Numbered from the stretch's first letter, positions 2,970 through 45,760 are shown. The stretch is 64,000 bases of DNA from Candidatus Nanohaloarchaea archaeon (GCA_013343275.1 CP046106.1:320001-384000), one strand, 5' to 3'. Program-made: numbers and translations. The notes: generated by a model from the letters alone, not told the origin.

Positions 2970-3650
2970 ATGGATACCTCTGATGCGATCAAAGTTCGTT
3001 ATGAAGACTACGAAATTCTGGTAGATCCTGACCTCGCCAAAGAGGCCAAGCTCGAAGGTAAAGAGCATGATATACAGAGGCTTCTTTTCGTCCAGGAAGT
3101 TTTCAAAGACGCCGACCAGGGTGAGAGAGCGTCGGCCGACGAACTGGAAAATGATTTCAACACACGCCAGGTGATGGAGGCTGCCGAGGAAATATTCGAG
3201 AAAGGAGAGATGCAGCTGACGACCGAACAGAAGAAAGAGATGAGAGAAGACAAGAGAAAACAGATAGTTAACATGATCGCAAGAAGGGCCATGGACCCGA
3301 AAACAGGCAACCCGCACCCACCGCAGAGGGTGGAGAACGCACTGGAGGAGGCAGGATTCCATGTAGATGCCATGGAAGACGTGGAAGAACAGTTCGACGA
3401 TGCAATTGAACAGATCAGACCTATCATACCAGTCTCACTGGATAAGAAAACTGTAGGTATCAAGATACCAAACGACAAAGCAGGAAAGGCCTACGACCTC
3501 CTGAAGAGAAAGGCCGACCTGAAAGACGAGCAATGGGGCAACGAGTACTTCATGGCCCGCATCCAGCTACCTGCCGGAGCACTCACGGAACTTATGGAAG
3601 AGCTGCAGGAGATGACCGGCGGCGAAGTCCAGATGACAGAAGAGGCCTAA
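2970..3650 (+). CDS. sdo1: Ribosome maturation factor SBDS/SDO1
   Basis: EILVDPD, QLTTEQKKEM, DPKTGNPHPPQR motifs; canonical position after psmA. Confidence 0.95.
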   Translation: MDTSDAIKVRYEDYEILVDPDLAKEAKLEGKEHDIQRLLFVQEVFKDADQGERASADELENDFNTRQVMEAAEEIFEKGEMQLTTEQKKEMREDKRKQIVNMIARRAMDPKTGNPHPPQRVENALEEAGFHVDAMEDVEEQFDDAIEQIRPIIPVSLDKKTVGIKIPNDKAGKAYDLLKRKADLKDEQWGNEYFMARIQLPAGALTELMEELQEMTGGEVQMTEEA

Positions 3651-3655
3651 AAATA

Positions 3656-4120
3656 ATGCATTCCAGCGCCGAGAGATTCGCAGACAAAGTTGAAGAGAAA
3701 TACGATTTCAGGCCTGAAATCAGGGAGTTCCCGGAAGGCACAAAAACTGCAGAGGACGCAGCAAATGCAATCAACTGTGAAGTAGGCCAGATAGTGAAAA
3801 GCCTGGTATTCGAATCAGAGAAAGGGCTTTACCTGGTTCTGTGCAGCGGGGATAACAGTGTTGACACAGATAAACTGGCGATGAGAACTAGTTCCGATTC
3901 AGTTGATATGGCCTCTCCGGATCAGGTGAAGGAGGTTACAGGCTGGAGCATCGGTGGAGTTCCTCCATTGCTCTCAGATCTCGAGGTATTCATGGATGAT
4001 ACGTTGCTCGACTACGATAAGGTTTGGGCGGCTGCTGGCACTCCTGAGGCCGTTTTCAGTATAGATCCTGAAAGGCTGAAGTCTCTGTCGGATGCCTCTG
4101 TTGAGACTTTTTTCGATTAG
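3656..4120 (+). CDS. YbaK/EbsC-family aminoacyl-tRNA editing protein
   Basis: TKTAEDAA, IVKSLVF, TGWSIGGVPP, WAAAGTP; start moved to MHSSAERF. Confidence 0.9.
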   Translation: MHSSAERFADKVEEKYDFRPEIREFPEGTKTAEDAANAINCEVGQIVKSLVFESEKGLYLVLCSGDNSVDTDKLAMRTSSDSVDMASPDQVKEVTGWSIGGVPPLLSDLEVFMDDTLLDYDKVWAAAGTPEAVFSIDPERLKSLSDASVETFFD

Positions 4121-4217: not shown

Positions 4218-4910
4218 ATGTCACGTGTAAAAGAAGACAATGACTTAGTTGTTCCTGGAGACGTCCTATACGACGGAAGCAACCTATATGCGAACCAGGG
4301 CACCTATGAAGAAAACGATAAAATCTATGCAGAAAGCGTTGGCGTTGTACGTTACAGCGACCAGGGTGTCGAAGTCGTCCCTATGTCAGGAAGATACATT
4401 CCTGAAGAAGGCGACGTAGTAATTGGAGAGATCTCTCGAGTAAGTTATTCTCGATGGACCGTTGACCTGAACTCTCCTTACGACGGCACACTCGGTATCA
4501 GCGACGCAACAGAAGAGTACGTTGACCTTGACGAAGACGACCTTACAGACTTCTACGATGTAGGAGATACAGTAGTTGTCAAGATTGACTCCGTAAGCGA
4601 GTCAATGGACGTCGACCTCTCAATGAAAGACCGCAGATGCAAGAAACTGCACGGCGGACGAGTAGTAGAGATCGCACCATCAAAGGTACCTCGTGTAATC
4701 GGAAAAGGAGGTACAATGGTACAGCAGGTTAACGACAAGACCGACTGCAACATAATCGTAGGCCAGAACGGTCAGGTATGGATCAAAGGCGAACATGCCA
4801 ACCTTGCAGCAAGAGCGATCAAGAAAATCGAAAGAGAAGCTCACACACAGGGCCTGACAGACAGAATAGCTGAATGGCTTGATGAACAGCTAGAAGAGGT
4901 GGATCAATAA
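4218..4910 (+). CDS. rrp4: Exosome RNA-binding cap subunit Rrp4
   Basis: LVVPGD, S1 domain, KH motif KVPRVIGKGG, IIVGQNG. Confidence 0.96.
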   Translation: MSRVKEDNDLVVPGDVLYDGSNLYANQGTYEENDKIYAESVGVVRYSDQGVEVVPMSGRYIPEEGDVVIGEISRVSYSRWTVDLNSPYDGTLGISDATEEYVDLDEDDLTDFYDVGDTVVVKIDSVSESMDVDLSMKDRRCKKLHGGRVVEIAPSKVPRVIGKGGTMVQQVNDKTDCNIIVGQNGQVWIKGEHANLAARAIKKIEREAHTQGLTDRIAEWLDEQLEEVDQ

Positions 4911-4960
4911 TGAAAATCGCAGATTTTCGTAGAGATGAAAACAGAGGTGTTTTCGAATAA
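4910..4960 (+). other. 16-codon bridging mini-ORF (MKIADFRRDENRGVFE) containing two hairpins
   Basis: ATG overlaps the rrp4 TAA and its TAA overlaps the rrp41 ATG; hairpins GAAAATC-GCA-GATTTTC and GAAAACA-GAGG-TGTTTTC. Confidence 0.55.
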
Positions 4961-5712
4961 TGACAGCATCAAAGGAAGACATTGAATGGTTTGACGAAGA
5001 AGGCAAACGTGTAGACGGAAGAGAAAAGGACGAATACAGAGAGACAACAATGGAGATCGGTGTTCTTGACGAAGCCGATGGATCCGCAATGGTAGAAGTA
5101 GGAAACACCAGAGTTGTAGCATCAGTATTCGGGCCACAGGATCTTCACCCGAAGCACCTGCAGGAATCAGACCGTGCAGTCATCAAGATGCGTTACAACA
5201 TGGCTCCATTCAGCGTAGACGACAGAATGAGCCCAGGACCGAACAGAAGAGCAAAGGAAATCGGTCTTGTAGCACGTAGAGCACTTGAACCTGTACTAGA
5301 CCTCGAAAGATTCCCGAAGTCCGGAATCGACATTTCCATGGAAGTTCTGGAGTCCGACGGAGGAACAAGAGTTACAGGAATCACAGCAGCTTCACTCGCA
5401 CTGGCCGACGCAGGCATTCCGATGGAAGGAATGGTCTCAGCAATAGCTTCAGGAGTAGTAGCAGACACACCTGTCCTAGACGTTAACGGCAAAGAAGACA
5501 AAGAAGGAAACGCAGACATCCCTGTCGCAGTAATCAACTACGAAGACGAGGAAGAATCCGACGAGATCACACTCCTACAGATGGACGGAAATCTCACACA
5601 GGAACAGGTAGATGAATGCATCTCACTGGCCAAACAAGGCTGCAGAGACCTCTACGAGGAACAGAAGAAAACCATTGTAGACAACTACGAAGCAATCAGA
5701 GGTGAACAATAA
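4960..5712 (+). CDS. rrp41: Exosome core exonuclease Rrp41
   Basis: RNase PH fold: RVDGR, ADGSA, YNMAPFS, SDGGTR, LADAGIPM, LLQMDG. Confidence 0.96.
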   Translation: MTASKEDIEWFDEEGKRVDGREKDEYRETTMEIGVLDEADGSAMVEVGNTRVVASVFGPQDLHPKHLQESDRAVIKMRYNMAPFSVDDRMSPGPNRRAKEIGLVARRALEPVLDLERFPKSGIDISMEVLESDGGTRVTGITAASLALADAGIPMEGMVSAIASGVVADTPVLDVNGKEDKEGNADIPVAVINYEDEEESDEITLLQMDGNLTQEQVDECISLAKQGCRDLYEEQKKTIVDNYEAIRGEQ

Positions 5713-44659: not shown

Positions 44660-45707
44660 ACTGATCAAAAGAAAGTAGAGTAGAAGGCCTATCCATATGA
44701 ACACCTATTTCTCCCTCAAAAATCTTTAAACCTGATCTCTGGATTAATTCGGGCCACGAGTAGGCTTTCTCGAAAATCTTACCTGCCCGGATTTCGTTCA
44801 GAAGTTCCGACCGCCAGGCCTTCTCGTAGTCATCAAGAGTATCAGGATCCTCAACATCTATGGATTCCGCAGCTTTTTCTACTGCTCTCATTCCGTAAAG
44901 TATCCCTCCCCCGGTGAATGGCTTGGTCTGGGCTGCTGCATCACCTACAAGGAATACTCTTTCAGAAGTAACCGTTTGTGCAGGCCCTACAGGTATAGCT
45001 CCCGCACAGATATTCCTCTGCTCTTCCTGATCGATGAAGCCATCTGTTATCTTATTCAGCCATTTCTGAGGGTTCTCACCTTTCGGTACTGCGGCGCCGT
45101 ACTCTACAGAGTCTCCTCTGGGGATTCTCCAGCCGAAAAACTCTGGAACTTCAAGAAAAACATCCACAAAGTCCGAAGGATCGTTCTCATCCGAGAAACA
45201 GAGGATTCCCTGATAGAAATGGTCCGGTTCTGGAAGACCGATCTGATCTCTGACGGTAGATGAGGCACCATCACATCCTGCAACCATAGAGGCCCGGTAT
45301 TCCCCTCTGTCAGTAAGTACCTTAACCCCGTCTTTATTCTCCTCTACTTTTTCAACTGTCTCTCCAAGCCTGTATTCTGCTCCTGCATCCTTAGCCTCCT
45401 CTGCCTTCAGTTTATCTAGCTCCACACGGTCTATAACATAGGAAACTGTCTCATTCTTGTAGAAACTGTATTCTGCATCGGACTCGGTGTGGAAGTTTGC
45501 TCCTGTGATCTCATTCTGGTAAAGCCTGTCACGAGCTTCCTCTGGTACGAAATCCCAGATATCGGGCGAAACATGACCTGAACAGGCAAGAGGCTTACCT
45601 ATCTCATCTGAACGCTCTATTAGAAGTACTTCAAGGCCTTTCTCCTGCATTTTCTGTGCGAGGTGCGATCCTACAGGACCTGCACCTACAATGATTAAGT
45701 CTCTCAA
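44640..45707 (-). CDS. Geranylgeranyl reductase-family flavoprotein
   Basis: VGAGPVG, LACSG, DR..LD, GCDG, VGDAAAQTKPFTGGGI; TTG start. Confidence 0.88.
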   Translation of the reverse strand: MRDLIIVGAGPVGSHLAQKMQEKGLEVLLIERSDEIGKPLACSGHVSPDIWDFVPEEARDRLYQNEITGANFHTESDAEYSFYKNETVSYVIDRVELDKLKAEEAKDAGAEYRLGETVEKVEENKDGVKVLTDRGEYRASMVAGCDGASSTVRDQIGLPEPDHFYQGILCFSDENDPSDFVDVFLEVPEFFGWRIPRGDSVEYGAAVPKGENPQKWLNKITDGFIDQEEQRNICAGAIPVGPAQTVTSERVFLVGDAAAQTKPFTGGGILYGMRAVEKAAESIDVEDPDTLDDYEKAWRSELLNEIRAGKIFEKAYSWPELIQRSGLKIFEGEIGVHMDRPSTLLSFDQFRSLFR

Positions 45708-45760
45708 CCGAAAATCGCCTGGATTTTCTGTGAAATCTTAAAATCAGAGATTTTATTCAT
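45704..45760 (-). other. 18-codon bridging mini-ORF (MNKISDFKISQKIQAIFG) containing two hairpins
   Basis: ATG overlaps the ferredoxin TAA; TGA overlaps the reductase TTG; hairpins TAAAATC-TCT-GATTTTA and GAAAATC-CAGGC-GATTTTC. Confidence 0.55.

Follow-up and report, generated by a model that had tools for sequence, protein, structure and literature searches.

What is the short open reading frame (ORF) that fills the junction between rrp4 and rrp41, two exosome genes, in the genome of a Candidatus Nanohaloarchaea archaeon? The junction lies in a window of 64,000 nucleotides (nt; GCA_013343275.1 CP046106.1:320001-384000) from a genome of 915,886 bp (0.92 Mb; G000). Positions are counted from the first letter of this 64-kb stretch, except for those called genome positions, which refer to the whole genome. 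A first-pass annotation had described the spacer as a 16-codon ORF with two hairpins, belonging to the rrp4-rrp41 pair and acting as a ribosome relay between the two genes. We consider it probable that the spacer is instead one copy of a dispersed intercistronic cassette of Nanohaloarchaeota that is gained and lost, an archaeal functional analogue of the mycobacterial MIRUs, in which the mini-ORF would keep termination-reinitiation coupling between the flanking genes.

The spacer and its copies

The layout given by the first-pass annotation was accurate to the base (Table 1). The spacer is filled exactly by the mini-ORF (ATG AAA ATC GCA GAT TTT CGT AGA GAT GAA AAC AGA GGT GTT TTC GAA TAA). Its ATG (4910-4912) overlaps the rrp4 stop TAA (4908-4910), and its own TAA (4958-4960) overlaps the rrp41 ATG (4960-4962). 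TAATG was thus found at both ends, with a stop/start distance of -1 nt at each step. Both hairpins were also placed exactly. Hairpin 1 can be extended to 9 bp, pairing the mini-ORF AUG itself (-5.5 kcal/mol), and hairpin 2 partly sequesters the rrp41 Shine-Dalgarno (SD) site as had been claimed, with GAGG in its loop and TG in its stem. The 16S rRNA 3' end of the same genome (GGATCACCTCC) matches GAGGTG, and the motif in hairpin 2 (SD2) is therefore a good SD site. An upstream motif of the same type, SD1, is carried by the 3'-terminal codons of rrp4; in relatives without the cassette it serves rrp41 directly, for example at the empty junction of G001, a genome of the same genus (...GAAGGTGAATCAATAATG). 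The 81-nt stretch folded at -15 kcal/mol (z = -2.12), and 5 of 200 shuffles were equally good. Since the fold of this single copy was only mildly unusual, the case rests on comparison and not on that fold. No Rfam family was found over window positions 4600-5300 (curated covariance models, 0 matches at E<=10).

Comparison within the genome revealed a family. In the window, GAAAATC-N3-6-GATTTTC occurred twice against 0.01 expected, a count reached by none of 100 shuffles, and the hairpin-1 motif was present at 14 sites of the genome against 0 for a reversed control. We built a two-hairpin covariance model and used its alignment because MAFFT misplaced hairpin 2 when whole cassettes were aligned. 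The model gave 15 matches at E<=1e-4 in the genome, all of them at operon junctions, plus weaker ones. Strong and weaker matches together comprised at least 18 mini-ORF copies of a twin-hairpin cassette of about 50 nt, with mini-ORFs of 13-19 codons; 17 of the 18 lay between co-directional genes and one followed a last gene (RpoA''). The shared build began with a start codon and hairpin 1; a linker of roughly 8-11 nt led to hairpin 2, which had an SD within the loop and the 3' arm, and the stop coincided with or adjoined the next start.

The occupied junctions were S12>S7, L44e>S27e, L23>L2, L22>S3, L14>L24, L5>S14 and S5>L30 among ribosomal genes; RpoE'>Spt4, Spt4>S24e, Rrp4>Rrp41 and TopoVI-B>TopoVI-A among those for transcription, exosome and topoisomerase; an unassigned 116-aa ORF>AtpA and AtpA>AtpB in the ATP synthase genes; and, in metabolism, 2Fe-2S ferredoxin>FAD oxidoreductase, aminotransferase>prephenate dehydrogenase and E1-alpha>E1-beta. 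Besides the copy after RpoA'', one more was located at genome position 144941, where the flanking genes are not annotated. Nearly all copies separated genes for subunits of one complex. The rrp4>rrp41 and E1-alpha>E1-beta copies were identical at 47 of 51 nt, and both are preceded by GAACAGCT..AGAGGTG, these being junctions that share upstream sequence. Since ...TTTTCGAATAATG is common to two copies, the right-hand TAATG is assigned to the cassette. A broader scan for any mini-ORF between open frames of at least 60 codons (324 in this genome against 162 in G001 read backwards) was too noisy and was not used.

The first-pass annotation had pointed to a related element at 45704-45760. It proved to be a true copy, although encoded on the minus strand. 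Its start codon, ATG at 45760-45758, overlaps the TAA that ends a 2Fe-2S ferredoxin gene (46065-45760, minus strand), and its TGA overlaps the TTG start of a gene for an FAD-dependent oxidoreductase (45707-44640, minus strand).

Table 1. Features of the two cassette copies in the window and of the exosome genes beside the first
Feature	Position	Strand	Basis or remark
rrp4 (exosome RNA-binding subunit), upstream gene	4218..4910	+	ORF; Pfam RRP4_S1, KH_6, ECR1_N_2
SD1 GAGGTG within rrp4 3' end, 8 nt 5' of mini-ORF ATG	4896..4901	+	sequence; 16S 3' end
Bridging mini-ORF, 16 codons + stop, MKIADFRRDENRGVFE	4910..4960	+	sequence
Hairpin 1 GAAAATC-GCA-GATTTTC	4912..4928	+	exact match; extends to 4910-4930
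Hairpin 2 GAAAACA-GAGG-TGTTTTC, containing SD2	4937..4954	+	exact match; -6.4 kcal/mol
SD2 GAGGTG for rrp41, 10 nt 5' of its ATG	4944..4949	+	GAGG in loop, TG in stem
rrp41 (RNase PH-type exosome subunit), downstream gene	4960..5712	+	ORF; Pfam RNase_PH
Second cassette copy, 18-codon mini-ORF MNKISDFKISQKIQAIFG	45704..45760	-	covariance-model match 45711-45755, 36.8 bits
Second copy, hairpin 1 TAAAATC-TCT-GATTTTA	45739..45755	-	sequence
Second copy, hairpin 2 GAAAATC-CAGGC-GATTTTC, AGG in loop	45710..45728	-	sequence

At the orthologous rrp4-rrp41 junction the cassette was present in the source genome and in G002, a member of the same genus, and was lacking in 28 of 29 relatives. Most of the cassette-free junctions consisted of a plain SD and a stop/start overlap; that of G001 reads ...GAAGGTGAATCAATAATGACAGCA, a plain SD with a TAATG overlap. 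From these plain overlaps, it seems that 50 nt were inserted precisely after the ATG of an earlier overlap. The TAA of the G002 copy was mutated; its reading frame runs on for one codon and closes in an ATGA overlap. The idea of an element belonging to rrp4-rrp41 was not supported, given the 28 relatives without it and the same cassette at no fewer than 17 other junctions of the source genome. In G013 the two genes were separated by an unrelated 345-nt insert with an extra open frame (ATGAGCACAACGGAA...) and no cassette.

The complete G001 genome lacked 16 of 17 copies of the source genome, L22>S3 being the only one common to both. Fourteen of its 16 empty sites had at most 6 nt between the flanks, one had an ordinary 20-nt SD spacer, and one had a 29-nt remnant-like sequence. 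At E<=1e-4, the model that gave 15 matches in the source genome gave 1 in G001, 8 in G002, 19 in G024 and no match in G004, G014, G017, G018 and G020, which belong to the same family; 24 of 40 relatives had 1-19 matches each. In the phylum, the hairpin-1 motif was found in 51 of 70 genomes, compared with 1 of 70 for a control, and its counts varied within genera (e.g., 7, 11, 19 and 3 in one genus). The position of the cassette varied as well. Cassette-size gaps occurred at different junctions in the ribosomal-protein clusters of different genomes (22 genomes), and in the exosome operon of G024, G021 and G007 the cassette was at rrp41>rrp42 instead. One gap in G008 held a cassette nested inside hairpin 1 of another, and composite copies of 100-119 nt were present in G006, G008 and G024. 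Nested and composite copies kept a single frame of 33-34 codons.

The bridging frame and the stems

The association between the frame and the hairpins was examined in 57 gaps of 38-160 nt from the ribosomal-protein clusters of the 22 genomes. Left out before the count were gaps whose upstream partner was SecY or an ORF labelled x1, x2, 'SUI1?', x6874 or 'RNaseP1?', pairs with 'SUI1?' downstream, and one N-masked gap (L23>L2 of G024, 106 nt); three of the excluded gaps, L29>'SUI1?', resemble cassettes. All 26 gaps in which at least two hairpins of 6 bp or longer were found contained a bridging mini-ORF, as did 10 of 11 with one hairpin and 7 of 20 without a hairpin. Several of the gaps that had a frame and no hairpin were visibly decayed copies.

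A second test used the 40 best model matches outside the source genome, and the model itself contains no start or stop codon. In 39 of the 40, a start codon was found near hairpin 1 and the frame was open through both hairpins, ending -8 to +6 nt from the next gene start, mostly at -4 or -1. The 40th match (G024:C52:6911-6958) had no start of its own; there the frame of the upstream gene crosses both hairpins and ends before the next ATG, so that the cassette peptide is appended to the upstream protein. An upstream gene was present for 36 of the 40, and the other four were placed as leaders. When 1 or 2 nt were deleted from the linker as an artificial frameshift, the number of bridging ORFs dropped to 16/40 and 11/40, which also shows that the ORF criteria were permissive, with a background of 28-40%.

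All three frames relative to hairpin 1 were used by the mini-ORFs (10, 22 and 7 cases). The peptide is therefore not what is kept, and ribosome passage is, as read from these sequences, what the cassette appears to conserve. A functional micropeptide encoded by the mini-ORF is accordingly very improbable. The copies of the source genome and G002 differ by one synonymous change and one at the stop, and one sub-family has MKIADFR..EN.RGVFE in common, both of which speak for such a peptide. However, the three frames over hairpin 1 give unrelated peptides (MKIADF..., MTENQRF..., MIRNSENF...), lengths range over 13-34 codons, and similarity follows the stem nucleotides; the micropeptide is largely refuted by these observations.

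The stems were compared in 63 aligned copies, in an alignment fitted to the covariance model, so that the pair counts lean towards the model structure. In total, 92.1% of cells were paired, compared with 32-67% in slid controls. Double-sided changes were found in 53 cells against 12.3 in shuffles, and none of 500 shuffles reached the observed value. Hairpin 1 was paired in 99.1% of cells across the 63 copies, with compensatory changes in 6 of its 7 pairs and no G-U pairs. The stem sequences of hairpin 2 varied among copies and yet paired, with many G-U pairs; therefore, folding of the sense-strand RNA is indicated.

The cassette was also better conserved than its surroundings. Between G000 and G001 the L22>S3 cassette differed at 3 of 54 nt, whereas 4-fold sites of the flanking genes differed at 29.7% (528/1779; binomial P 1e-5). 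Between G000 and G002 the rrp4>rrp41 cassette differed at 2 of 52 nt against 46.5% (94/202; binomial P 8e-12), these being the synonymous change and the one at the stop mentioned above, and the flanks beside it showed the usual divergence. This conservation may reflect either selection on the whole sequence or copy-to-copy correction.

Such conservation would also suit a gate selected by the host, in line with the first-pass annotation, in which the hairpins block independent initiation and production of the downstream subunit is confined to, and matched in number with, that of the upstream one, the repeat character being secondary. In several copies the AUG of the mini-ORF is paired within hairpin 1, and part of SD2 is paired within hairpin 2; moreover, the occupied junctions almost all join subunits of one complex, and some copies have a very different hairpin 1 with the same layout (e.g., G019 S17>L14 and S4e>L5). 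On the other hand, most relatives do without the cassette at the same junctions, the hairpins are weak (-5.5 and -6.4 kcal/mol), at old sites they decay while the ORF remains, and the same hairpins are present where there is nothing to gate. We regard a gate of this kind as possible but doubtful.

That the spacer arose by chance, with a fortuitous ORF and fortuitous hairpins, might be argued from the single-copy fold, whose z is only -2.1. This was refuted by the motif counts against controls, the copy family, the covariation and the frameshift control, and hardly any credence can be given to it.

Predicted relay, rival roles and spread

The preferred reading, a dispersed cassette with a coupling mini-ORF, implies the following course of translation. 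The cassette presents, in order, a start, hairpin 1 (consensus GAAAATC-N3-GATTTTC), a short linker, hairpin 2 with a new SD, and an overlapping or abutting stop. The mini-ORF start, at or just after the upstream stop, would be served by the SD that formerly served the downstream gene. A ribosome ending rrp4 would cover and melt hairpin 1, reinitiate at the overlapping AUG, read 16 codons while unwinding hairpin 2, terminate at the TAA overlapping the start codon of rrp41, and reinitiate there with the aid of SD2. Two -1 overlaps would replace one ancestral TAATG overlap, so the 50-nt insert, which by itself would uncouple rrp41 from rrp4, would leave the coupling intact. When the upstream gene is not translated, both starts would be partly buried in hairpins.

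This course agrees with what has been described for overlapping genes. The first-pass annotation had stated that stop/start overlaps give coupling in archaea, and termination-reinitiation at overlaps of the -1 and -4 types is indeed reported (Huber 2019); the coupling at such overlaps is described as strict in Haloferax and E. coli (Huber 2019, 2023). An untranslated spacer of about 20 nt almost abolishes coupling according to Huber 2023, and a bridging ORF therefore makes sense. The same source reports an enrichment of overlaps among genes whose products form heteromeric complexes. Thus, the relay part of the earlier description survives insofar as the architecture fits and the frame goes with the hairpins (26/26 and 39/40); it does not survive as a regulatory element specific to rrp4-rrp41. 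Its further statement, that melting of the SD hairpin ties rrp41 output to rrp4, is a suggestion drawn from the sequence. The hairpins may be either an added benefit, as a gate against independent starts or through mRNA ends or stability, or the part that spreads.

Several observations weigh against our reading. Translation of the mini-ORF and the relay are predictions from sequence. The choice of gain over loss is a parsimony argument and was made for rrp4>rrp41 only. The lean of the stem alignment and the permissive ORF criteria, given above with their counts, belong here too, and the cassette core is stop-poor in every frame (of 120 frames, 86 were open; in shuffles 30%), so that openness is partly built into the sequence. 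At L22>S3, an old site, hairpin 1 has decayed in G008 and G021 and the mini-ORF has been retained; the hairpins may therefore be dispensable for the relay. Strong conservation elsewhere argues for hairpin function or copy correction. None of the three enzyme families considered below tracks the cassette load. Finally, twin GAAA...TTTC hairpins without a mini-ORF also occur in the source genome after gene ends and beside tRNA genes, and the hairpins therefore have a role, or a life, outside translation.

These non-operon hairpins lay 5-27 nt after the stop codons of last genes or adjoined tRNA genes (genome 542336-542480, 600506-600553 and 861332-861378). The tRNA-adjoining ones were flanked by 8-11-nt duplications of the tRNA end, e.g. 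CGGACGCCGCA after tRNA-Gly, and look like insertions with target duplication. Four GAAA...TTTC hairpins in an array, with a GC-rich hairpin behind them, were found 5 nt past a gene end (genome 434620-434715) and in front of a spacer of 268 nt. A role as 3'-end or terminator region is possible.

Similar sequences were seen in other organisms. Arrays of AT-rich hairpins with 3-6-nt loops (GAAAATC/GATTTTC, CGAAAAC/GTTTTCG) were present in intergenic DNA of other archaea, namely Woesearchaeota, Pacearchaeota, Nanoarchaeota, Methanosarcinales and Methanobacterium, some of them repeated within a contig. In Chryseobacterium, a repeat of its own fits the hairpin-array pattern. A nearly identical stretch of about 90 nt (...GGATTCACGGAAAATCGAAGATTTTCCTGAAGTCGAAAACGC...CGTTTTCGGAATTCACC...) in Halovenus, Haloarcula, Haloferax and Halobellus holds the same two hairpin types.

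From such places one could argue that the cassette is an element of RNA ends, processing or termination, whose hairpins stabilise or define mRNA segments or attenuate transcription in the manner of REPs, the mini-ORF merely avoiding stranded ribosomes. The twin hairpins past last-gene stops and beside tRNA genes, the four-hairpin array and the modules of the same type in intergenic DNA of other archaea would all suit this role, and E. coli REPs within 15 nt of a stop codon are described as affecting translation. Against it, the stems are weak and are accompanied only by T4 runs, termination would be costly inside ribosomal-protein and RNA polymerase operons, and SD2 is built into hairpin 2 only in the operon copies. 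We consider this role unlikely, and it is compatible with the dispersed coupling cassette, the two not being exclusive.

How such a cassette could spread was addressed by searching for three enzyme families. The Y1 transposase (PF01797) gave no match in the source genome; among 41 related genomes only one, G039, had it, and control genomes were positive. A miniature element derived from REP/RAYT or IS200/IS605 was rejected for want of a cognate Y1 (HUH) transposase. Reverse transcriptase (PF00078) was present in 3 of 41 genomes (G000, G021, G022) and was missing from the cassette-rich G024, G008, G007 and G006; a retro-mobilised short element was set aside since the enzyme does not co-occur with the cassette. 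The reverse-transcriptase gene of the source genome (genome 209684-210679, 331 aa, PF00078 E=8e-26; within 208397-211987) is absent from G001 and could be part of a diversity-generating or retron-like element. GIY-YIG nucleases (PF01541) above the cut-off were found in 6 of 41 genomes, none of them cassette-rich; most were frames of 564-617 aa and one had 181 aa. An element targeting start codons with a GIY-YIG nuclease was rejected because no such partner accompanied the cassette.

A fixed target-site duplication was also rejected, since the flanking repeats varied: ATG (3 nt), AATAATG (7 nt), and 8-11 nt beside tRNA genes. Two versions of the junction motif SD-N8-TAATG enclosed each cassette, and recombination at these repeats could copy a cassette in or excise it precisely. 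We can only tentatively entertain the stronger view that DPANN archaea harbour a 'translation relay' cassette which propagates itself without a transposase and which evolved as a coloniser of the closest-packed operon junctions in a minimal genome. Such a cassette would bring its own SD, its start/stop overlap and hairpins almost free of stops in each of the three frames, and selection or copy correction would maintain its uniformity. Its hairpin module would be one of a wider class of archaeal hairpin repeats, present in Woesearchaeota, Pacearchaeota, methanogens and haloarchaea, of which our literature searches gave no description.

Elsewhere in the window, the ORFs listed at 2970-3650 (SBDS-family gene) and 3533-4120 (tRNA-editing-domain gene) have 118 nt in common, and the second gene probably starts further downstream.

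Comparison with known systems

Overlapping-gene coupling as described by Huber 2019 and 2023 shares with the cassette the same -1/-4 overlaps and the enrichment in heteromeric complexes, and the empty sites in relatives are such overlaps. In comparison with the cases reported there, the cassette puts two overlaps in series, joined by a mini-cistron, an arrangement known here from the DNA.

The first-pass annotation knew of no description of a similar element; the MIRUs of mycobacteria, which carry an ORF overlapping the flanking genes, speak against this. As summarised in PMC12548453 and PMC3184786 (after Supply et al. 1997), MIRUs are 40-100-bp operon repeats whose ORF overlaps the adjacent genes. 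According to these summaries, they have filled and empty sites and are said to insert at start codons, with their ORF coupled to the next gene. The likeness to the cassette is close in functional terms: both are short repeats dispersed in operons, their ORF ends overlap the flanking stop and start, both have filled and empty sites, and both form composite or multiple units. Unlike the MIRU, the cassette is archaeal (DPANN), is AT-rich instead of GC-rich, and has a defined twin-hairpin core with an SD in hairpin 2. Moreover, it uses both -1 (TAATG) and -4 overlaps, its hairpins are also present in non-operon settings, and no fixed 4-nt direct repeats were seen. We therefore liken it to MIRUs by function; a kinship in sequence is not to be expected, and we do not count it among the mycobacterial family.

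REP/BIME elements with RAYT and IS200/IS605-derived elements are likewise short palindromic repeats of transcribed intergenic regions, frequently located a few nt past stops, and their copy number varies between strains, as does that of the cassette. In contrast to the cassette, REPs are not read as bridging ORFs, and the Y1 transposase was as scarce as given above (0/1 own genome, 1/41 related). In the synthetic bicistronic design (BCD), a short leader cistron contains the SD, its stop overlaps the next start, and the helicase activity of the ribosome clears structure. The BCD resembles the cassette in its leader-cistron layout; it is man-made and stands behind a promoter, whereas the cassette is natural, repeated and located between genes. 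Our literature search found no description of such an element for Nanohaloarchaeota or other archaea. A paper that it did bring up, PMC10266531, reports four unclassified non-coding RNAs with a 'hairpin-hinge-hairpin-tail' shape.

MIRU-type repeats indicate that selfish or semi-selfish DNA can inhabit operons if ribosomes keep moving. If our reading is true, an archaeal counterpart in symbiont genomes of 0.6-1.3 Mb would have had an independent origin in a setting with very little room between genes. Such cassettes would further provide a natural test series for termination-reinitiation in archaea, with two serial overlaps, with or without hairpins, and in three frames. At the occupied junctions, subunit stoichiometry is determined for the ribosome, RNA polymerase, ATP synthase, exosome and topoisomerase VI. 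Variable mini-ORFs of this kind would explain odd 'spacers' of 45-110 nt and spurious small genes in nanohaloarchaeal annotations, and the filled and empty sites could be used as strain markers. Thus, as far as the functional analogy carries, what is known is the MIRU-type kind, and what is new is an archaeal form of a junction repeat with a coupling mini-ORF.

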